This document shows, in pieces, positions 8,391 to 41,420 of a stretch of 64,000 bases of DNA; positions within the stretch are counted from its first letter, which is position 1; each line of letters starts with the position of its first letter. This stretch comes from Candidatus Wildermuthbacteria bacterium (GTDB taxonomy: Bacteria; Patescibacteriota; Minisyncoccia; Minisyncoccales; UBA10102). The position numbers and the translations under genes were made by a program. The DNA lies in assembly GCA_016186115.1 (NCBI GenBank), contig JACPMK010000002.1, forward strand, positions 274,323-338,322, read 5' to 3'. A model generated the notes under the pieces. That model did not search any database. It was not told the DNA's origin and saw only the letters and a program-made list of their open reading frames with translations.

Positions 8391-8867
8391 TTAATTGAGA
8401 ATCCAGATAGCATAGTTTAAGTAGGCGGCAAAACTCACCCAAAGAATATACGGTACGAGCAGATACGCCGCCGGTTTGGAAATTTTGTAAAAAACAATGA
8501 TCGTCCAAACAATTGCAAGCCAAAGGGAAACTATTTCAACAAGAGCCCAGCCCGGACTCTGGAATCCGAAGAAAATAATTGACCAGATTGCGTTTAAGAA
8601 AAGCTGAATGCCGAATACGCCAAGCGCCATTTTTACCTCTTTCCGTTCCCAACCCATACGCCATATCAAAAATGCCGCGATGCCCATCAACGCATAGAGC
8701 GTGGTCCACGCGGGCCCAAACACCCAACCCGGAGGATTCAACGCCGGCTTTTCTAATGCCGCGTACCACGTGGGTATCGCATTAACCGTAAACAGAGATC
8801 CAATTATTCCGGCAAATTCAGAAAGAGCGACTGCAATAACAAGTTTCAACGCGCTGGGGATTCTCAT
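8391..8867 (-). CDS. tspO: TspO/MBR family tryptophan-rich sensory protein
   Basis: Five-TM, Trp-rich pattern (GWVFGPAWTTLYALMGIAAFLIW..., FLNAIWS, LWLAIVWTII) typical of TspO. Confidence 0.75.
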   Translation of the reverse strand: MRIPSALKLVIAVALSEFAGIIGSLFTVNAIPTWYAALEKPALNPPGWVFGPAWTTLYALMGIAAFLIWRMGWERKEVKMALGVFGIQLFLNAIWSIIFFGFQSPGWALVEIVSLWLAIVWTIIVFYKISKPAAYLLVPYILWVSFAAYLNYAIWILN

Positions 8868-8888
8868 AACTAAACACGCAATATTAAA

Positions 8889-9065
8889 TTATTCGCTCGC
8901 CGGATCGGCGCCTTCTTCCTCATGAGCTTGCTTTCCATAATGCTTTCCATCTGCGCAATCGCACGGTTCCAGCGGCGCATGATGTTTCGGACAACCTTCT
9001 GTTTGGCAAACGCCCGGCTTATCGCTTACCCCTTTACATGTGCCTGTGCAAATATAATGAATCAT
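8889..9065 (-). CDS. small Cys-rich protein (58 aa) missed by the 60-aa ORF cutoff
   Basis: Minus-strand ATG at 9065 and TAA at 8889. Translation is MIHYICTGTCKGVSDKPGVCQTEGCPKHHAPLEPCDCADGKHYGKQAHEEEGADPASE, with 7 Cys and 5 His; weak GGA upstream. Confidence 0.4.
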   Translation of the reverse strand: MIHYICTGTCKGVSDKPGVCQTEGCPKHHAPLEPCDCADGKHYGKQAHEEEGADPASE

Positions 9066-9079
9066 ATGTATCTATCCTA

Positions 9080-9103
9080 CCAAAAAATCGCCCCTGAGGC
9101 GAC
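9080..9103 (-). terminator. rho-independent terminator (end of the R-M operon transcript)
   Basis: Minus strand reads GTCGCCTCAGGGGCGATTTTTTGGTAGG; it shares the 15-nt core caaaaaatcgcccct with the terminator at 5600..5627. Confidence 0.45.
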
Positions 9104-9249
9104 CCCTCACTTCTGACAACGAGCATCAAAGTATCAATAAGTATCTATGCATATACCTGCAAATATCAAATCCGCTTCTCTCTCGTCCCACTCAAAATCA
9201 AACCCCACCTCTTCAATCTCTTTTGGAATTTGTCGTTTGGTCATTTCTA

Positions 9250-9382
9250 TCATTCGTTTGTTATTTTTAAAACTTTCTCTGCGATTTCTTCAACTGGCCC
9301 ATCTGCGTCGATCGCAAAGTTTTTTGCTTAACGTCGACTTCCCCACTCCTGTAGTTCCAATAATCAAAATTGATCTTTTCAT
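9250..9382 (-). pseudogene. remnant of a P-loop kinase gene (Walker A N-terminus plus frameshifted C-terminus; middle missing)
   Basis: ATG at 9382 gives MKRSILIIGTTGVGKSTLSKKLCDRRRWAS, then a stop (Walker A GTTGVGKST). The -1 frame continues GPVEEIAEKVLKITNE, then a stop. The total is far too short for a functional kinase. Confidence 0.35.
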
Positions 9383-9389
9383 AATTATT

Positions 9390-10526
9390 TCAGTTTACCA
9401 TATCCAATTCGCCGGCCATTGAGCGATATAAAACGCTGTCAAAGAGCTCTCGGAGTTTGGTTTTTTGCTCCAACAGACCTTTTTTGTATTCTTGCACCGC
9501 ATTCAGTTTTTGAACAATTTCCTTTTGCGTCTCAATTCCCGGCACCGGAATTTCAATATGTTTAATTTTATTTGCATTAAACTGTTGTTGGCCAGAACCG
9601 GTCATCAATCGCTCCGCCTGCGTCCAATATTCTTTTGTTCTAGAAAAAATCCAGATAAACTTTGGCAAGACGAGTTTTTCATCTGGTATAATGCGAATCA
9701 AGTATGAGGCAAAAACAGCAGGTTCATTTGAATCGTAAAAAAGAATTTTGCCATAAGTAGCGCCCGTCCGCGCCACAAGCAAGTTTTCTTGATTGAGCAC
9801 ATACTTCTTTGTTTCGCTGTTTGCTTTAACGTATTTCGGATCAGAATTTCTTAGTTCCCCGCTTTCGTTGATGTCAGTGATTCGTATAAGGCGATAATCC
9901 CCCTCGTCCTGCGCCGAAGCTGTATATCCGTATTGAAACTCGCAAAGCTCCCCTAATTTTTTGATTTCCCAATTTTTGGCGACTGGGTTAAGTTCCTTAT
10001 GCAACAGCGACGCAAAGAGTTCTTCGGTTTTTTGGATAAGCTCGTTATTCAATTTTTGCGCCTCCCGAATCCCATCCAACCGCTCCACAAGCTTTTTCTG
10101 TATCTCAAGAGGAGGAACCGGAATTTTAAGATTGTCTATGAATGCCTTGCTTAAATGAGGAACAGCCGCACCCTGGGCCGCACCACGAATTTTACTCTCG
10201 TTGAATTCCCAAAAGTATCGCAAAAAGCGGCTATCCAGTTTAGGTTCTCTAATCACAATTTTGGCAACGGTGCTACCAGCAAAACCACTTACTTCTATTC
10301 CCACCGTTCCCGCATGTGCTCCGTCCCACACTACAACAACATCATCCTCCGCACACCGCACGCCGTCTTTCTCGGGCGTGTATAGATTATATTTTTGCGT
10401 CCTAATCGTATCAATGCCAATATAAGGCTTATAGCCAAGCTTTTGCTCTTCCGAAACAGCCATTTTCTTTCCCTTTTGGAAGTCTATAACCTCTCCCAAT
10501 TTTTTCGTCGGCCAGTTAGTTTTCAT
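9390..10526 (-). CDS. hsdS: type I restriction-modification specificity subunit HsdS (two target-recognition domains)
   Basis: Classic HsdS architecture: N-terminal WPTKKLGEV, central conserved repeat (IPVPPLEIQKKLVERLD), a second half starting NWEIKKLGELCEF, and a C-terminal repeat (IPVPGIETQKEIVQKLN). The start overlaps the upstream gene by 4 nt (ATGA). Confidence 0.9.
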   Translation of the reverse strand: MKTNWPTKKLGEVIDFQKGKKMAVSEEQKLGYKPYIGIDTIRTQKYNLYTPEKDGVRCAEDDVVVVWDGAHAGTVGIEVSGFAGSTVAKIVIREPKLDSRFLRYFWEFNESKIRGAAQGAAVPHLSKAFIDNLKIPVPPLEIQKKLVERLDGIREAQKLNNELIQKTEELFASLLHKELNPVAKNWEIKKLGELCEFQYGYTASAQDEGDYRLIRITDINESGELRNSDPKYVKANSETKKYVLNQENLLVARTGATYGKILFYDSNEPAVFASYLIRIIPDEKLVLPKFIWIFSRTKEYWTQAERLMTGSGQQQFNANKIKHIEIPVPGIETQKEIVQKLNAVQEYKKGLLEQKTKLRELFDSVLYRSMAGELDMVN

Positions 10527-11104
10527 GTAAGAATACCGAATATACTCAACACGAACAGCAAAAGGCCCAGACCGAAAATTCCCAAAAACAAATAGTATAA
10601 TTTATCCAATACAGAGGAATATTTAGTCACTGGTTTAACATCCTCTGTATAAATCTTTTTGCTTTCTTCCTTCATGTTCAGATAGTCTTCTATATGTTTT
10701 TCCTCGAGCATTCCATCTATGGCTTGCGAGTATATTTGAACTACTTCTTTCAGTTGTTCGGCAAGAAACTTTTGCTCTGCGTCATTTTGTACTTTACTTA
10801 ATGTTCCCTCTTTTATATTAGAAAAAATGATCAAACCAATGCCATAAATAGCACCCACCAGCAATAAAACCACAGACACGATAGATAAACAACCAAGTGC
10901 TTCATTACTCGCATAGATCGGAAATACTATGGCCACCATCGCAATTTCTAACGACGAGAAAGCAACGATTGATGTATGCTTTCGCTCTATAATGCGATTC
11001 TCCCTATTTTCAAATTCGAACATCCGTTGAAGCAAAAGATCAACTAAAGTATCTCGGGTTGTTCGAAATTCGTCTTGCGCTAATTTTAGTTCTTTATCAT
11101 CCAT
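10523..11104 (-). CDS. hypothetical membrane protein (cassette gene D; TM hairpin plus C-terminal TM) embedded in the R-M operon
   Basis: 193 aa: cytoplasmic N-terminus, two adjacent TM helices (IVAFSSLEIAMVAIVFPIYA, LGCLSIVSVVLLLVGAIYGIGLIIF), a ~70-aa charged helical segment and a C-terminal TM (YYLFLGIFGLGLLLFVLSIFGIL). GGGAGA SD upstream; stop overlaps the hsdS start. Confidence 0.6.
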   Translation of the reverse strand: MDDKELKLAQDEFRTTRDTLVDLLLQRMFEFENRENRIIERKHTSIVAFSSLEIAMVAIVFPIYASNEALGCLSIVSVVLLLVGAIYGIGLIIFSNIKEGTLSKVQNDAEQKFLAEQLKEVVQIYSQAIDGMLEEKHIEDYLNMKEESKKIYTEDVKPVTKYSSVLDKLYYLFLGIFGLGLLLFVLSIFGILT

Positions 11105-11139
11105 AAATGTATTCTCCCAATTTTTTCGTCGGCCAGCGG

Positions 11140-11913
11140 CTAATCTTCATAAACCCTTGATAGGATGGCGTCAGCTTCCTGCCGGCCAAGCCCTCGAAGC
11201 ACCAAACCATTCTCATTTTCTGCCACCATATTTTTGATTTTAGTCACAGCAATTTGAGCTGCGTTCTTAGAGCATCCGTGATCCTGTATCAGCTTTACAA
11301 GATCGGCGCGCTTAGTTCTTTTCGGGGAGAACGCATTCAGTAATAACAGCGCAATCTCTCTGGGGTATAAACCTCTGATATTGATAAATAGTTGATCGTC
11401 GATTGCTTCTAAATATGGATATTTTCGTTCTATTACCGTTTCTACTAGCACAGCTGCCTCGTCCGGATCCGCGGAAGACCCTGCGATCCGAATTATTTCT
11501 GCAAGGATCCATGACATAATTGGAACGGCAACACTGGCGTCCATTTTGTTGGGATTTACCTCCGTAGGATCATGACGAGCCCCTCTGTTGCTCGCGATGT
11601 CATACAAAAAGCGGCATGCCCGCGGTATTGTTATTCGAATAGAATCATGACAACTACCTGCCGCAGTATTCTGAAGCGTGTTAATCACGCCTTCGACACC
11701 AAACTGGCGCGCAGGAGGAAGCGTATTGCCGGAAGAAATACACAGCATTTTGAGTGCTGCCTCGACAAACTTTCCACTTTTTGCAACGCATTCTTCCCAA
11801 TCACTCTCATGGTATGCACGAATAGCACCATTATAATGTCGCAAAAGATTCCCTATATGTTGTCTGGGGAACATGGCTACAAGCACTTCTTGTATGTCTT
11901 GAGTTATAGACAT
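11140..11913 (-). CDS. hypothetical helical protein (cassette gene C), possible Abi/HEPN-like nuclease but no canonical motif
   Basis: 257 aa. All-alpha character; contains SNRGARHD (Rx3H, not the canonical Rx4-6H HEPN motif); the C-terminal ~90 aa are wHTH-like. It lies 7 nt downstream of gene B. Confidence 0.6.
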   Translation of the reverse strand: MSITQDIQEVLVAMFPRQHIGNLLRHYNGAIRAYHESDWEECVAKSGKFVEAALKMLCISSGNTLPPARQFGVEGVINTLQNTAAGSCHDSIRITIPRACRFLYDIASNRGARHDPTEVNPNKMDASVAVPIMSWILAEIIRIAGSSADPDEAAVLVETVIERKYPYLEAIDDQLFINIRGLYPREIALLLLNAFSPKRTKRADLVKLIQDHGCSKNAAQIAVTKIKNMVAENENGLVLRGLGRQEADAILSRVYED

Positions 11914-11920
11914 CTTTGGC

Positions 11921-12346
11921 TCAGTTGAAAATCTCTTTCCAGTTCGGTCTTAAGTTATAAAAGCCTTTTCGCTTCGACTCCACCCAATCGTTATCCTTTG
12001 CAGCAGAAGTAAAAAAGCGGTTAAAGTCAGTACCTACTATAGAAGTCATTCTGCTCCACTGCTTTTCGATTTCGGTAAGCGTAATTTCTTTTTTTGTATC
12101 TCCCTTTGTCAAACGTGCCAATAAAAGAGTGAACTTCTTCGCGCCGCTCATATTCTTGGTGACGTACTGCTTCATAAAGGGGCGGAGAGGCTTATCAAAA
12201 TCAATGCTCCCCGCGCGACTCGTTTGTTTTGAGGCATTCCTATCTTTGGTGTTCTTGGTACTACTAGCTCCAAGAACTATTTTTTCTACACGGTCAAGAC
12301 GGGTCGAGATCTCCGAAATCCTTTGCCCAAGTTCTTTTTCTGTCAT
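11921..12346 (-). CDS. hypothetical protein (cassette gene B), paralog of gene A
   Basis: 141 aa. Its C-terminal ~90 aa align with gene A (TLTEI/TPAEI anchors, conserved R and A in a 23-aa equal-length segment, NDWVESKRKGFYNLRPNWKEI vs NAWIASDPSQRGTFYVTNPGFKAM). The start overlaps the A stop (ATGA). Confidence 0.6.
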   Translation of the reverse strand: MTEKELGQRISEISTRLDRVEKIVLGASSTKNTKDRNASKQTSRAGSIDFDKPLRPFMKQYVTKNMSGAKKFTLLLARLTKGDTKKEITLTEIEKQWSRMTSIVGTDFNRFFTSAAKDNDWVESKRKGFYNLRPNWKEIFN

Positions 12347-12876
12347 AATCGCTTCTTTAACTTCTTATTTTTTGACGCTACTCTTTTTGTGTTCTTTTTG
12401 CGCTTCCCCCCTCGAGGGGCCGATGTTTTAGGAAATCCTTCTTGCATGGCTTTAAAACCAGGGTTGGTTACATAAAACGTTCCCCGTTGACTTGGATCGG
12501 AAGCAATCCAAGCATTCCTTAGAGCTACTTTAAGATCCCTCGTGAGATTTCCGGGGAGCTTTTCTCCAGCATCACGTAAAAGTACTCTTATTTCAGCTGG
12601 AGTAAACGAATCTTGCCCTCTCGCTTCTTTCAAGTATGCCCCTAAAGCTACAATTTTATCTGGGTTGCGGTCAGGCGCAAATTTTTTGAGATATTCAGCT
12701 GGAGCTTCTTGCGGCCGAGAATTTATAGGCCGAGCGGTGACGCTTGTGGTGACGGCACCTTCTTCTGTAGAAAGACACGTCCTCATAACTTCCGCTGCTG
12801 TTTCTGGAGAAACTTCTCCAGTGTACTGTAACCCCGCCCCTCTTAAGATAACTTTCACTTTGTTTGGTTTAGCCAT
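12343..12876 (-). CDS. hypothetical protein (cassette gene A) with Lys-rich basic C-terminal tail, paralog of gene B
   Basis: 177 aa. The tail GGKRKKNTKRVASKNKKLKKRL suggests nucleic-acid binding; the central region is paralogous to gene B. Confidence 0.6.
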   Translation of the reverse strand: MAKPNKVKVILRGAGLQYTGEVSPETAAEVMRTCLSTEEGAVTTSVTARPINSRPQEAPAEYLKKFAPDRNPDKIVALGAYLKEARGQDSFTPAEIRVLLRDAGEKLPGNLTRDLKVALRNAWIASDPSQRGTFYVTNPGFKAMQEGFPKTSAPRGGKRKKNTKRVASKNKKLKKRL

Positions 12877-12926
12877 AGTTTTGTAGTGTATAACTTTTTG
12901 TATTACTGTACGACTTTACGACATTC

Positions 12927-12954
12927 ATTATACACAAGTACAAAACTAAGTCAA
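12927..12954 (-). promoter_or_regulatory. near-consensus sigma70 promoter (TTGACT-16nt-TATAAT) inside the operon, upstream of cassette gene A
   Basis: Minus strand reads ...GCTGCCTC TTGACT TAGTTTTGTACTTGTG TATAAT GAATG...; about 50 nt upstream of the gene A ATG at 12876. It is preceded by a 6-bp hairpin (12957-12975) that spans the hsdM stop codon. Confidence 0.45.
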
Positions 12955-12966
12955 GAGGCAGCTTGG

Positions 12967-14511
12967 TTAGCTGCCTCCGAGTAGTTTCGCTATCTTCTCT
13001 CTTGTACCATCTAGCGTACCACTTTTCTGTTCTATCTCTCCTAAAATCTCCTTGGGATCGCGGTGAGGTTTTTCTGCTTCGATGGCGTGCGGATTGTACG
13101 TGTTGGCAGAAAGAATAAAATCGTTTGCGGCGATTTGTTTTACGGGGGTGAACCAAGAGAATCCTTTTTCTTCTTTGGGCTGGCCGCCGTTCCACAACTC
13201 CAAGAGCTTGGGGATGTCATTGCGGTATTGGGGGCCGTATTTTTTGGCCGCAGATAAAGAGGAGCCGTCTCCTTGCATATTAAAGAACCATATTTTATCA
13301 GGCGACCCTTCGACAGGCTCAGGGTGGTTTTTCTTACGAAAAACCAGAAAGCTGGTTTTTACTCCGGCGTACGGCTGGAATACTCCAGCTGGCATGGAAA
13401 CCACAGCTTCAAGCTTTGTATTTTCCAAAAGATAGCGGCGAATTTCTTTGTCGTCGCGGTTGGTGCCGAACAAACTGCCTTCCGGCAAAATAATGCCAGC
13501 TCGGCCGGTGCCCGGCTTTAAGGCATTCAGCACATACCCCAAAAACAGAACTTGCGTTTTCTTGGACTTTACGGGTAGGGTGGGCTTTACCCGTTCTAAA
13601 TCCACTTTTCCCGCAAATGGTGGGTTTGTTAAAACTACGTCGAACTGGCGGAGATCGTCGTCGGTTTCAGATCCGGCAACCGTATCTTTTCGCTGGATTT
13701 TTGCGCCTTCAATGCCGTGCAGAATAAGATTCATTAAGCACAGCCGCATCATTTCGGGGTCTACATCGTAGCCATGAAACGTTTTTTGAATAAGAAAATC
13801 CCATTGCGCTTTTTTAAGGCGGTCGCCATAGCCTATGGGATAGCCATTTTTCTCCGCAATGCTTTCTTTGCTGCTGTTTTGGTATTTTATCCATTCAAAA
13901 GAAGCAATAAGAAAGCCGCCGGTGCCGCAAGCAGGGTCGAACACGGATTCCCCTATTTTAGGGTTTACCATGTGCACCATGGGCCGAATAATGTGCCGGG
14001 GCGTAAGAAACTGGCCCAGTTCGCCGGCAGCGTCTATGCTCTGAAGTAGTCCTTCGTATAAATCGCCTTTTACGTCGGTCTCCAGCTTTGAAAACTCAAT
14101 GCTGTCGATTATTTCGACTGCGCGTTTGAGTGTAACCTCGTCTGGAATAAGAAACTTTGCGTCGCGGAAAATTTGAGAAACAGTGGTATGGCTGTTTTGA
14201 AGATCTACGGCAAACTGAAAAACATTATCGCGGACAAAGTTATACAGCTGCGTGCCGGTTTTGTCGCGCCAGCGAGACCAGCGGAATTTCTCGTTGTCGC
14301 CTTCAAAAATAGAGTGGTGAGCGCGGCCGGTAAGTTCTTCTGCCCGCTCCATGGCATTATCCTGTTCTTCCAGCATCTTTAAGAAAAACAAAAAGCTTAC
14401 CTGCTGAATGCGCGTAACCGGGTCTTTAAGGCCGGCGCCCCAAAGGTAGTTGTTTAGACGCGAAAGCTTTGTCTGGAAATCTTCTGTAAATTGTTGAGCT
14501 TCAGGACTCAT
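12967..14511 (-). CDS. hsdM: type I R-M N6-adenine DNA methyltransferase subunit HsdM
   Basis: HsdM N-terminal domain (LWGAGLKDP...), SAM-binding FDPACGTGGFL and catalytic VLTNPPFAG (NPPF motif IV); 4-nt ATGA overlap with hsdR. Confidence 0.9.
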   Translation of the reverse strand: MSPEAQQFTEDFQTKLSRLNNYLWGAGLKDPVTRIQQVSFLFFLKMLEEQDNAMERAEELTGRAHHSIFEGDNEKFRWSRWRDKTGTQLYNFVRDNVFQFAVDLQNSHTTVSQIFRDAKFLIPDEVTLKRAVEIIDSIEFSKLETDVKGDLYEGLLQSIDAAGELGQFLTPRHIIRPMVHMVNPKIGESVFDPACGTGGFLIASFEWIKYQNSSKESIAEKNGYPIGYGDRLKKAQWDFLIQKTFHGYDVDPEMMRLCLMNLILHGIEGAKIQRKDTVAGSETDDDLRQFDVVLTNPPFAGKVDLERVKPTLPVKSKKTQVLFLGYVLNALKPGTGRAGIILPEGSLFGTNRDDKEIRRYLLENTKLEAVVSMPAGVFQPYAGVKTSFLVFRKKNHPEPVEGSPDKIWFFNMQGDGSSLSAAKKYGPQYRNDIPKLLELWNGGQPKEEKGFSWFTPVKQIAANDFILSANTYNPHAIEAEKPHRDPKEILGEIEQKSGTLDGTREKIAKLLGGS

Positions 14512-16847
14512 CGTTGAACAAAAATCCGCTGGTTAAGCTCTTGAAGCATTTTCTTAAGTTCGTCGGCGTCAAACAGCGTAAGGACATGGTTCAGGCCGCC
14601 GAAGTATTGGAACACCGGTTCTGTAAAAATAGAAACGTCAACCCGCTCTTTGTTTGCGATATACTGTTCCTTTACCAGGCGGAGTAATTTGGTTTGCTCT
14701 GCAGAAAGATTTTTTTCGAGAAGCCAAGATTCAAACAAGTCGTTGACACGGTTTTCTAAAAGTTGCTCTTCGGTTGGCAGCTCCTCAATATCCAAAGCGG
14801 TACGGATAAACTGGTTAAGCGTGCCTGGCGGATAGCCGTACGCCTCGCGCAAATTTGCCTCGTTAAAGTAGAATTTGGGCGAATTAAGTTTTTCACCAAG
14901 GTACGCGGTTTCGTCGCTTGTAAGTTCTTGCCCTTCTTTTACTTTGGAAATAAGGGGTTCGGTTTGCGCAAGTTCCTGCACTTCTTTTTCCCAGGCTGTT
15001 TGGTATTCGTCAGCATCAATGGATTCGCCTTCCGGCCCCACTTCCACATAGGTACGTTGTACCACACTATCAACATTTTCCGGAGCGGATTCTGGCACCT
15101 GTACAAATTGCAGCTTTTGCACCGCCTCTTTTTGTTCGTCGGTAAGGTCTTCCAAGTCGTCGGTTTCTTCCGTGCCCCAGGGGATACCGGTACGCGCTTT
15201 TAAGATATTTGAGTACGGGTTGTAGCTTTCGTCGTTAAAGTAAGCGGTAACGCCGGCAAAATCGTATATGCGAAAAGAAGTTTTGCTTATGGAGCGGTCG
15301 AGTCGGCTGCCGCGGCCTCGCATTTGCTGGTATAAAATGGCAGATCGCGTAGGGCGTACCATAACAAGGTTTTCTACCATGGGAGCGTCTATTCCCGTAT
15401 CAAGCATCCCAACGGATACGGCTACTTTGGGAAATCCTTCCAGCTTGAATTTTCGAATGGCCGCCCGGGGGTCTTGCGTGTCGGAAGTTATGACTTCTGC
15501 AAAACGGCCGTTGTGTTCGGGAAACGCCTGGTTAAGGTAATACGCAAGCTGGGCTGCGTGCCGTTTTGTTACGGCAAACACAATGGCCTTGCGAAGCTTG
15601 CCATCTCCCCGGCTTTCCTCTTCTTGTCGATATGCTTTTGCAATCTGTTCGTTGCGGGCTGGAATGTTAATTCGCCTTTCCAAGTCTTCTGGATTATAAT
15701 CTTCGTTTTCATATTCTACGCCTTCAAGAGATAGCTTTGTCTCGATACGGACAATATCGTAACCCGCCAAATAGCCTTCTTTGATACCCCTGCGAATGCC
15801 ATAGGTAAAAGTGGGTTCTCCTCGCTCTTTTCTTTCATCCCAGCAGTCAAAAAGCTTGTAGGTGTTGTGGTTAATAAGTATGGAGGGTGTGGCGGTAAGC
15901 CCAATGCGGATAGCGTCAAAGTGCGAAAGGACAGCATTGTAAATGCCGTAAATGCCGCGATGCGCTTCGTCTGAAACGACAACGTCAAAGTATCCACTCG
16001 TAAAGTTTGAAAGTTGGGAATATATCGTAGGGAGCGTGGAGATAATAATAGAGGATTCGTCGCTTTCCCGCCCGCCGTACAAAAGTTTTGATGGATAATC
16101 GGCAAGAATGTCGCCGAAAGCGTCTTGCGCCTGCTGGCCGAGATCGATTCGATCTACAAGAAATAGAACTCGCCGGGCAACTCCTGCCTCAAAAAGACGT
16201 TTGAGGTACAGGGCAACAGTATCTGTTTTCCCGGTACCGGTCGCCATAAGCAAAAGCATTTTACGTTTGCCGTTTTCAAGCGATTTATCCATGACAATCA
16301 TAGCTTCCTTTTGGTACTGTCGAGGCTCTCGCCATTCCCCTCCTTTGAAATATTTTTCTGGTATGGGAATTGCTGAAACCGGCTTTTGCTCTAACCGCTG
16401 TGTTTGCAGTTTTTCGAGATCTCGTTGCGAGAAAAAAGTTGCTACCTTTTGTTCGGGCCTATATTTGTAGTCCCAAAAATAAATATCTTCTCCGTTAGAA
16501 AGAAAAATAAAATCAGTGTTCGTGGCTTCGGCATATTCCAACGCTTGTTGTTTTGCAGCCACGGGATCCACCGAAAAACGTTTCGCTTCTATAATGGCAA
16601 TGCTTCTGCCTCGACTATCACGAAGAATATAGTCGGCCCGGCCTTTTGCTGCTTCGGCTTCCGTGGAAACTTGGTTTTTGTCTTCGATATTCCAAAAGGC
16701 CTCACGCAATTTGCGGTCAATCAAAATGCGCGAGTCTGTCTCGCGCAAAACCTGCCCTTTTGGAGGGGTTACTCCAATTTCCACTTCTCTTGGCTTATAG
16801 AGAGGTTCCTCCATAGAATTACTCCACCATACTCCATTTCTCCTCAT
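14508..16847 (-). CDS. hsdR: type I R-M restriction subunit HsdR (compact, 779 aa)
   Basis: N-terminal PD-(D/E)xK nuclease motif (ADYILRD...IAIIEAKR), SF2 helicase motif I LMATGTGKT, motif II VVSDEAHRG, and later helicase motifs. The alternative start MEEPLYK at 16814 has the better SD (GGTGGAG). Confidence 0.9.
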   Translation of the reverse strand: MRRNGVWWSNSMEEPLYKPREVEIGVTPPKGQVLRETDSRILIDRKLREAFWNIEDKNQVSTEAEAAKGRADYILRDSRGRSIAIIEAKRFSVDPVAAKQQALEYAEATNTDFIFLSNGEDIYFWDYKYRPEQKVATFFSQRDLEKLQTQRLEQKPVSAIPIPEKYFKGGEWREPRQYQKEAMIVMDKSLENGKRKMLLLMATGTGKTDTVALYLKRLFEAGVARRVLFLVDRIDLGQQAQDAFGDILADYPSKLLYGGRESDESSIIISTLPTIYSQLSNFTSGYFDVVVSDEAHRGIYGIYNAVLSHFDAIRIGLTATPSILINHNTYKLFDCWDERKERGEPTFTYGIRRGIKEGYLAGYDIVRIETKLSLEGVEYENEDYNPEDLERRINIPARNEQIAKAYRQEEESRGDGKLRKAIVFAVTKRHAAQLAYYLNQAFPEHNGRFAEVITSDTQDPRAAIRKFKLEGFPKVAVSVGMLDTGIDAPMVENLVMVRPTRSAILYQQMRGRGSRLDRSISKTSFRIYDFAGVTAYFNDESYNPYSNILKARTGIPWGTEETDDLEDLTDEQKEAVQKLQFVQVPESAPENVDSVVQRTYVEVGPEGESIDADEYQTAWEKEVQELAQTEPLISKVKEGQELTSDETAYLGEKLNSPKFYFNEANLREAYGYPPGTLNQFIRTALDIEELPTEEQLLENRVNDLFESWLLEKNLSAEQTKLLRLVKEQYIANKERVDVSIFTEPVFQYFGGLNHVLTLFDADELKKMLQELNQRIFVQR

Positions 16848-16939
16848 TTTTCCAGTAAAAAGTCGCTAAGGCACGGCACCAGCCAGAAACGTATCTCCTT
16901 AAAACTGCGATAGCAAGAATAAGAAGATCAACGCTGGGA

Positions 16940-16986
16940 TAATGGAAAAATAAAAGTCGCCATGCTCATAGAAAGAATGGCGACTT
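16940..16986 (-). terminator. rho-independent terminator downstream of lipoprotein gene 17002..17457
   Basis: 10-bp stem aagtcgccat/atggcgactt (16953-16986); on the minus strand it is followed by TTATTTTTCC. Confidence 0.5.
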
Positions 16987-17001
16987 AGCTTCCCTCATTA
17001 C

Positions 17002-20897: not shown

Positions 20898-20971
20898 GGC
20901 TCCGCGGGTAGGACTCGGACCTACAACCAACTGGTTAACAGCCAGCTGCTCTACCATTGAGCTACCGCGGA
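20898..20971 (-). tRNA. tRNA-Asn (anticodon GTT)
   Basis: Minus-strand sequence TCCGCGGTAGCTCAATGGTAGAGCAGCTGGCTGTTAACCAGTTGGTTGTAGGTCCGAGTCCTACCCGCGGAGCC folds as a cloverleaf with a 7-bp acceptor, anticodon loop CTGTTAA and T-loop TCCGAGT. Confidence 0.85.
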
Positions 20972-30172: not shown

Positions 30173-30332
30173 ACTGATGATGCTTTTGAACTTTTTTAAA
30201 AAATTTCTTATGCCCTTATTGATAAATCCTTTTCCTTTTCGCCAAAAAAACCCTTTCAAATCCTAGCCGAGCGGCACGTCCCGCGCCGCGAGCTTGCTTC
30301 TTCCAATTCCGATTTTCAATTTTGGCGGTGGG

Positions 30333-30420
30333 GGTGGGATTTGAACCCACGATACCTTTCGGTATACCTGCTCTCCAAGCAGGCGCACTAGGCCGCTATG
30401 CGACCCCACCATTTACCTCG
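30333..30420 (-). tRNA. tRNA-Ser (anticodon GGA), class II with long variable arm
   Basis: Minus strand GGTGGGGTCGCATAGCGGCCTAGTGCGCCTGCTTGGAGAGCAGGTATACCGAAAGGTATCGTGGGTTCAAATCCCACCCCCACCGCCA: anticodon loop TTGGAGA, T-loop TTCAAAT, CCA encoded. Confidence 0.85.
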
Positions 30421-41338: not shown

Positions 41339-41420
41339 GGGCGTGTGGCGGAACTGGCATACGCATACGCTTCAGGAGCGTATTCCGCAAGGATTGAGGG
41401 TTCGAATCCCTCCACGCCCA
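41339..41420 (+). tRNA. tRNA-Leu (anticodon CAG), class II
   Basis: GGGCGTG acceptor, anticodon stem-loop TACGC-TTCAGGA-GCGTA, variable arm TCCGCAAGGA, T-arm GAGGG-TTCGAAT-CCCTC, 3' CACGCCC + A; CCA not encoded. Confidence 0.8.

Follow-up and report, generated by a model that had tools for sequence, protein, structure and literature searches.

An orphaned hsdS start in front of an embedded gene of a Candidatus Wildermuthbacteria type I restriction-modification operon, and its recurrence around other cargo in related operons

The locus considered here lies on contig JACPMK010000002.1 of a Candidatus Wildermuthbacteria bacterium, a member of the candidate phyla radiation (CPR; Patescibacteria). 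It was analysed as a stretch of 64,000 nucleotides (positions 274,323 to 338,322 of the contig), which we call the window and to which its coordinates refer. The minus strand of the window carries a type I restriction-modification (R-M) operon with the gene order hsdR-hsdM-A-B-C-D-hsdS. HsdR, HsdM and HsdS are all full length by Pfam and PADLOC, and four open reading frames (ORFs), A to D, are embedded between hsdM and hsdS on the same strand, joined by overlaps or short gaps. None of the four has a match in Pfam, PADLOC or NCBIfam. The operon contains a perfect direct repeat of 24 nt, TCTCCCAATTTTTTCGTCGGCCAG, with one copy in the first codons of hsdS and the other in front of gene D. The features are as follows:

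14508-16847, minus strand: hsdR, 779 amino acids (aa); Pfam ResIII, EcoEI_R_C and HSDR_N, PADLOC REase_I.
12967-14511, minus strand: hsdM, 514 aa; Pfam N6_Mtase (E 3e-59) and HsdM_N, PADLOC MTase_I (E 5e-141).
12343-12876, minus strand: gene A, an ORF of 177 aa, the first cargo gene after hsdM.
11921-12346, minus strand: gene B, an ORF of 141 aa with a 4-nt overlap with gene A.
11140-11913, minus strand: gene C, 257 aa, of a large family (692 matches) found outside type I loci too.
11097-11150, minus strand: orphaned hsdS start, a mini-ORF of 17 codons, MKISRWPTKKLGEYIYG and stop, from its translation and alignment with relics of other loci.
11113-11136, minus strand: repeat copy 2, an exact match within the 35-nt gap from the gene C stop (11140) to the gene D ATG (11104).
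10523-11104, minus strand: gene D, an ORF of 193 aa, the cargo between the two repeat copies.
9390-10526, minus strand: hsdS, 378 aa, intact, with two target-recognition domains; Pfam Methylase_S in two stretches (E 5e-41), PADLOC Specificity_I (E 2e-62).
10492-10515, minus strand: repeat copy 1, an exact match; it covers codons 5-12 of intact hsdS (W P T K K L G E), and the translation reads MKTNWPTKKLGEVIDF.
9949-9971, minus strand: a weaker third copy of the motif (W E I K K L G E), where the second target-recognition domain of hsdS starts, with 3 mismatches to the degenerate core defined below.

A first-pass annotation made from the letters alone had described the repeat at these positions, one copy in the first hsdS codons encoding WPTKKLGE and the other in a 35-nt spacer between genes C and D, and had considered that it could not be due to chance. 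Our analysis agrees on each of these points. The two sites are the only exact matches in the 64 kb, no third site of the 24-mer is found there even when 3 mismatches are allowed, and none of 100 dinucleotide shuffles gave a match. The pair is also the longest perfect direct repeat within 8800-17000. The N-terminus of hsdS translates as M K T N W P T K K L G E V.., and the two copies have the same codon phase (621 = 3 x 207). There is a single hsdS in the window, and the sole other copy of the motif is the start of its own second domain. The GGGAGA of copy 2 is located 8 nt 5' of the gene D ATG, a spacing which fits the suggestion that it acts as a Shine-Dalgarno (SD) sequence for gene D.

The C-D-hsdS arrangement is found in four more contigs, independently assembled from other sequencing runs (L021-L024; loci other than the window carry L numbers), and their sequence is that of the window except for noise at the contig ends. 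L021-L023 contain both repeat copies; L024 ends inside gene D and has the upstream copy only. Because these independent contigs carry it, the repeat is not an assembly artefact.

Copy 2 is enclosed by the mini-ORF, which runs from the ATG at 11150 to the TGA at 11097. The ATG of the mini-ORF overlaps the gene C stop (ATGAAGATTAG) and its TGA overlaps the gene D start (ATGGATGA), in the same way as the gene D stop overlaps the ATG of hsdS (ATGA). On the 5' side of the 24-mer a weaker likeness between the two copies extends to a second ATG (ATGAAGATTAGCCGC versus ATGAAAACTAAC); the first codons are related and have diverged. Since copy 2 has its own ATG, hsdS-like first codons and the codon phase of hsdS, it is read as an orphaned start of hsdS. 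Of the two origins that had been proposed for it, the one supported is the relic of a second hsdS 5' end. In L015, another locus with a gene D homologue, the similarity to the window upstream of gene D begins exactly at the ATG of the relic. The mini-ORF is kept in all eight relics examined, where it has survived an in-frame hairpin insertion of 36 nt (L009) and an in-frame deletion of 3 nt (L001). Both repeat regions fold no better than shuffled sequences (z +1.4 and +0.5), and Rfam has no match near the repeat; its only hits in the window are three tRNA genes at 20900-20971, 30326-30410 and 41339-41420. We also considered that ATGAAAACTAAC might be part of the gene D cassette; this was dropped, as L025 has the same hsdS start behind an unrelated cargo gene.

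Gene D differs from its surroundings by a GC content of 36.3%, against 46.1% for the window and 43-48% for the neighbouring genes. Close homologues number only 13, and no more than 33 clusters were found by a profile search among 1.84 billion protein representatives; scans with the gene D profile gave only three loci among metagenome contigs and one among genome contigs. The DNA identity of gene D to its homologues is 73-75% only. Across loci the homologues are found behind six different upstream genes:

Window: gene C.
L004: a reverse transcriptase (RT).
L001: a 285-aa protein with no assigned family.
L009: an AAA_14/DUF4143 ATPase.
L014: a TIR protein.
L015: an SduA_C protein.

A recognisable relic is present 5' of gene D in the window, L001, L004, L009 and L015, the one in L009 being split by the 36-nt hairpin; in L010 it is decayed, and in L011 and L013 no relic was seen at gene D. 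Directly 3' of gene D there is an hsdS start or a decayed stub of one in the window, L001, L014 and L015 (L001 and L015 have no hsdS), and in L004 and L009 a 151-aa gene separates gene D from hsdS. The deviating GC content, the varied partners and the hsdS-start flanks in most of the gene D loci all support the proposal of the first-pass annotation that gene D is a separately acquired or shuffled module.

An AlphaFold model of gene D (predicted local distance difference test, pLDDT, 74) has three long helices with hydrophobic stretches, and the product is predicted to be a three-helix membrane protein. A Foldseek comparison with the PDB gave BAR-domain and coiled-coil noise only, with no match at E<=0.001. 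A phage origin of gene D was discarded: IMG/VR holds no relatives of it and no exact match to the consensus core. Several small cargo genes near hsdS in other loci have a hydrophobic segment at the N-terminus (L004 8579-9034, L014 1965-2387, L020 11703-12125, L025 6827-7579), and one of these has a faint match to the PADLOC '2TM effector' (E 0.004). The hydrophobic stretch of gene D is internal and not N-terminal as in these genes. It may be that small membrane proteins recur as cargo beside hsdS.

The same joint is found around other cargo. HsdM of the window has more than 900 close homologues (E<=1e-100), and five distinct loci were retrieved by HsdM homology only, with no attention paid to repeats. 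Together with nine distinct gene D loci these make up the sample, which is entirely metagenomic. A scan with the degenerate core TGGCCNACNAARAARYTNGGNGA, allowing <=2 mismatches, gave 15 matches, all of them on the operon strand and at gene starts or boundaries, and none on the other strand. Extra copies of the hsdS start at cargo boundaries are present in 4 of the 5 loci fetched by HsdM. In L019 the order is hsdM, an SLFN/AlbA_2 gene, the relic ATGACTAAC-TGGCCAACAAGAAAATTAGGAGA-ATAAATTTATG, a HEPN gene and hsdS. Of the three copies in L020, one is the true start of hsdS, another is a relic 5' of a gene of 140 aa, and the third is fused to form the beginning of an ORF of 211 aa. L025 has a perfect 24-nt pair of its own, CTGGCCAACAAAAAAATTAGGAGA, with the copies 788 nt apart and flanking an unrelated gene of 250 aa. 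L026 has two copies; there and in L027 a 297-aa ORF begins MKINYPTKKLGV and a further relic lies 3' of it. L018 has half a copy of the core downstream of hsdS.

Every extra copy between hsdM and hsdS adjoins an inserted gene. The first-pass annotation had suggested a search for partial hsdS copies in related genomes, and had pointed out that the case would fall if the repeat belonged to all hsdS genes irrespective of any insertion. This was not observed. The core is indeed the normal start of hsdS, but the extra copies are found at the boundaries of cargo in related type I operons, next to inserted genes. The HsdM proteins of L025 and L026 do not differ at all, and the DNA of the two loci agrees to 99.3% as far as L025:6445. 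From there on the cargo is different; cargo therefore turns over at a short evolutionary distance. Domains of the defence type occur in the cargo of the related loci only (HEPN, SduA_C, TIR, RT, SLFN/AlbA_2 and the AAA_14/DUF4143 ATPase). Among PLSDB plasmids the nearest HsdM matches are <=38% identical, and the three loci inspected there have hsdM followed directly by hsdS, with no cargo.

Some further features were seen at these joints. The hsdS start is fused in frame to an unrelated protein in two cases, L020 11038-11673 (the 211-aa ORF, beginning MTWPTKKLGENIF) and L026 8461-9354 (the 297-aa ORF, beginning MKINYPTKKLGVANL); the possibility that these ORFs are degenerate HsdS proteins was rejected, as neither has a Methylase_S match. 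Small hairpin elements of the form CCCC...GGGG are found in or beside joints at L009 5935-5970, at L018 9122-9151 and 9162-9193, and at about 6630-6700 in L025. The one in L009 has a folding energy of -19.4 kcal/mol (z -4.4) and breaks up the relic without shifting its frame, and in L018 an element lies inside the hsdS end and is followed by the half relic CAAGAAAATTAGGAGAATAAATTTATG. These hairpins may constitute a family of miniature palindromic elements.

The relation between the two sides of the joint is informative about how it arose. The codons to the left of the core vary (MKIS/MKIN, MP, MT, MTN) and do so independently of what is on the right. On the right-hand side a 34-nt unit, TGGCCAACAA[A/G]AAAATTAGGAGAATAAATTTATG, consisting of the core, ATAAATTT and ATG, precedes gene D in L004 and the unrelated HEPN gene in L019. 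This mosaicism, the left codons and the right-hand cargo varying independently, suggests that the breakpoints lie at the core.

A second line of evidence comes from the spelling of the core. The family consensus is CCA ACA AAA AAA TTA GGA, and both copies in the window read CCG ACG AAA AAA TTG GGA; they share three derived G substitutions and have no private differences. The window and L015 have the type of relic and a downstream TspO gene in common, and since the TspO proteins are only 54% identical the arrangement looks old. If it is as old as it looks, gene conversion or a recent crossover between the two copies is the best explanation for their identity, because they share the derived substitutions despite a diverged gene D. 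That the perfect identity is a leftover of the original event is unlikely.

The core is also conserved at the DNA level. The codons for PTKKLG have an identity of 0.83 among seven true hsdS starts, compared to 0.39-0.67 for codons of the same residues in the adjacent hsdM genes, and the probability of the consensus spelling from codon usage alone is about 8e-4. Whatever its cause, this conservation makes the hsdS start a rare island of DNA identity among diverged hsdS genes.

We consider it probable that the 5' end of hsdS, conserved as it is, functions as a portable joint for cargo cassettes between hsdM and hsdS and provides both homology and a translation start. This reading is built on what the sequences show directly: how the joint is constructed, that it returns in several loci and around several types of cargo, that its two sides are combined in mosaic fashion, and that the window copies have derived substitutions in common. 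The upstream 24-mer would be the core of an orphaned hsdS start (an ATG and about 12 codons) that was left in front of gene D when gene D, together with a working hsdS start, came in between gene C and the body of hsdS. The joint would thus give a short shared sequence through which recombination or gene conversion could add, remove or swap promoter-less cargo while hsdS is spared. A crossover between the two copies in the window would delete gene D and leave an in-frame hsdS beginning MKISRWPTKKLGEVIDF; the corresponding deletion of 621 bp, joining 11137|10491, would give an hsdS starting MKISRWPTKKLGEV. The joint would also supply the cargo with a start of translation, since GGAGA is placed 8 nt 5' of the ATG and the surrounding sequence is rich in A and unstructured, and translation could pass from gene C to the mini-ORF, to gene D and to hsdS through the overlapping stops and starts. 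The route of recombination (circle integration, unequal crossover or conversion) and the translational coupling are inferred.

Several points speak against the joint as we see it. The sample of loci is small, and the evidence for homogenisation is limited to the window, the copies in L004, L019 and L020 differing by private changes. The cargo of L018, a UvrD-like gene and a 201-aa gene, has no relic inside it. All consensus codons are of the form NNA, and selection for an unstructured A-rich 5' end would be a sufficient explanation for the conserved DNA. A homology of 24 nt is at the lower limit for efficient RecA-dependent recombination. No empty site (C followed directly by hsdS), circular form or deleted form was found when all contigs carrying the exact gene C protein were looked up: each has C-D-hsdS, and all five assemblies of the strain carry gene D. 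Finally, a spacer common to unrelated cargo requires a breakpoint at the cargo ATG, which the model leaves unexplained.

A more far-reaching version can be formulated, in which the 5' end of hsdS is a genuine attachment or joining site. Type I operons of the CPR and of other groundwater bacteria would then be integron-like collectors of promoter-less defence genes, with cassettes moving by excision and integration through host recombination or a recombinase acting in trans, each insertion regenerating hsdS and translation being passed on through the mini-ORF. We regard this version as doubtful.

Two other explanations deserve to be weighed, and we find both improbable, to about the same degree. 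According to the first, the core is the attachment site of a dedicated site-specific recombinase encoded elsewhere, and the cargo genes are true cassettes which are excised as circles and re-inserted at hsdS starts, comparable to attC/attI of integrons or to TvrR of pneumococci. In its favour, the joint is a discrete and sharply bounded unit, and 34 nt are common to the unrelated cargo of L004 and L019. The window and L025, which are unrelated loci, each have a perfect pair with its boundaries at the same 24 nt, and the DNA of the core is conserved above codon expectation. There is also the precedent of the tvr locus, where excision and reintegration at direct repeats inside hsdS are driven by a recombinase (PMC6265443). 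However, the ends of the repeat coincide with the conserved residues W...GE, which is what a coding constraint predicts. Moreover, the window ORFs between 4.2 and 20.2 kb contain no integrase, resolvase, transposase or other recombinase domain, and no recombinase is present among the precomputed Pfam matches of the related loci. There are no relevant inverted repeats within 8800-17000 and no attC-like structure at the joint, and a circular form was not seen.

The other explanation takes the upstream copy as a passive fossil of a tandem hsdS, or of an ancestral hsdS truncated once, which has been inherited along with gene D, survives only as its ribosome-binding site and has no role in gene movement. 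It accounts well for the truncation point and spacer (GGAGAATAAATTTATG) shared by relics across loci, which suggest one ancestral truncation, for the decay of stubs where hsdS is gone (L001, L015, L010), and for the private differences among the copies in L004, L019 and L020; GGAGA at 8 nt is a plausible SD sequence. It leaves unexplained, however, why the window copies have three derived substitutions in common and no private change when gene D has diverged by about 25% from its relatives. The variation of the codons left of the core independently of the cargo, the presence of the same joint on unrelated cargo and the different cargo of operons with identical HsdM are also left without explanation.

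A regulatory role is far less probable. It would make the 24-mers a shared target, for example for one antisense RNA or RNA-binding protein linking expression of gene D and hsdS, and it could appeal to the fact that the two copies are identical and lie in translation-initiation regions of one transcript, both of them unstructured and therefore accessible. This is at variance with the differences between copies in other loci, where identity is not generally kept; nor is there an Rfam family match at the copies, and promoter-like sites in the region are no commoner than in shuffles. Last, the first-pass annotation had mentioned a target-site-like duplication, and a transposable element carrying gene D would indeed place a direct repeat around one compositionally foreign gene, but this hardly credible reading is contradicted by the anatomy: the insert holds gene D alone, without terminal inverted repeats, transposase or integrase, at least 24 nt far exceeds the usual length of such duplications, beyond the 24 nt each copy continues as an hsdS start with an ATG of its own and these starts have diverged, the same joints surround many unrelated genes, and an insertion that seems old with later homogenisation fits better.

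It should be noted that the surroundings of the operon also contain features of interest. The 90-nt gap between hsdM and gene A (12877-12966) has a promoter-like site, TTGACT-16-TATAAT, at 12927-12954 on the minus strand (11/12 positions, a consensus match only, such sites being no more numerous in the region than in shuffles). The same gap holds an 8-nt inverted repeat, GTGTATAA/TTATACAC (12886-12893 and 12928-12935), one arm of which overlaps the TATAAT box. A regulated promoter specific to the cargo block and hsdS may lie here. Judged from the sequence, just 3' of hsdS, at 9300-9389 on the minus strand, a short ORF beginning MKRSILIIGTTGVGKST (Walker A) stops after about 30 codons and looks like the truncated remnant of a P-loop kinase or ATPase.

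In three genomes that are only distantly related, a TspO/MBR gene is found beside the type I locus or what remains of it (window 8391-8867, L015 about 2255-2595, L019 5170-5523), which suggests an old common neighbourhood or an island that includes TspO. The closest homologue of gene C (52% identity) is in the region L016 5168-7789, outside any type I locus, and is preceded by an N6_N4 methyltransferase gene and four small ones. Two of these small genes weakly resemble genes A and B of the window (E 0.05 and 0.016), and the B-like one precedes the gene C homologue; genes A, B and C may be one module that moves as a unit.

Related operons have extra genes at other positions too. A RadC gene, often with DUF7695, is located upstream of hsdR among L004, L009, L018, L019, L020 and L025, and between hsdR and hsdM there is a NYN gene (L004, L019, L025) or a 103-aa gene judged by its sequence to be GIY-YIG-like (L009). 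The window has none of these RadC, NYN or GIY-YIG-like extras, and its hsdR and hsdM overlap.

The arrangement can be compared to several known systems. Integrons hold series of single genes that lack promoters of their own and are expressed from a promoter upstream, with a short recurring site at the boundary of each, and they have intI, attI and attC hairpins. The locus resembles them in that a recurring short site bounds promoter-less genes; it differs in having no intI and no attC hairpin, the joint being unstructured, and in that the recurring site is coding sequence of the resident gene. Integrative elements at the 3' ends of tRNA genes carry a replacement end and an integrase, and produce a direct repeat with one functional and one orphaned copy. 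Here too the target gene stays intact, its terminal segment being present on both sides of the insert, whereas it is the 5' coding end which is duplicated and no integrase was found.

It is well established that genes can be embedded in type I operons and that recombination takes place at hsdS repeats. Extra genes inside otherwise intact hsdR/M/S operons are known as PrrC (EcoprrI), RloF (Campylobacter) and TgvAB (Vibrio cholerae VPI-2) (PMC11411939, PMC12707154). As in those operons, the window has non-hsd genes within a type I operon, and the cargo of its relatives has defence-type domains; unlike them, genes A to D match none of the embedded families described. The closest parallel to the repeats is the pneumococcal tvr locus (SpnIV), in which direct repeats derived from hsdS bracket a segment with the non-hsd genes tvrAT and tvrR, and excision leaves a functional locus; at the longer repeats, excision was also observed independently of the recombinase (PMC6265443). 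The tvr locus has a recombinase gene of its own, and its specificity changes as alternative target-recognition segments are shuffled. The window shares with it the direct repeats of hsdS sequence flanking a segment, the 24-nt pair around gene D. It differs in that no recombinase and no spare recognition segments were found, the repeat is formed by the outermost 5' part of hsdS, and it is the cargo which varies and not the specificity. In phase-variable hsdS invertons and shufflons, such as the pneumococcal ivr locus (SpnIII), short conserved stretches of hsdS are the substrates of recombination (PMC4948785, PMC7672463). These systems have inverted repeats, several hsdS copies and an invertase. 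The window is different: its repeats are direct, it has a single hsdS and no relevant inverted repeats within 8800-17000, and no invertase was found. In the literature searched, which is incomplete, there is no description of duplicated hsdS 5' ends bounding embedded genes.

How embedded genes enter such operons without breaking them has been left unexplained in that literature. A joint made of the hsdS start would be a concrete and testable mechanism, as it regenerates hsdS, supplies the cargo with a ribosome-binding site and offers a sequence for exchange. Scanning genomes for orphan hsdS starts would delimit cargo cassettes, many of them encoding small membrane or uncharacterised proteins, and they belong to lineages that have not been cultivated and in which the defence repertoire is for the most part uncharted. 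The recurrence of the joint in related operons points to a simple route by which genes may be swapped inside a defence operon.

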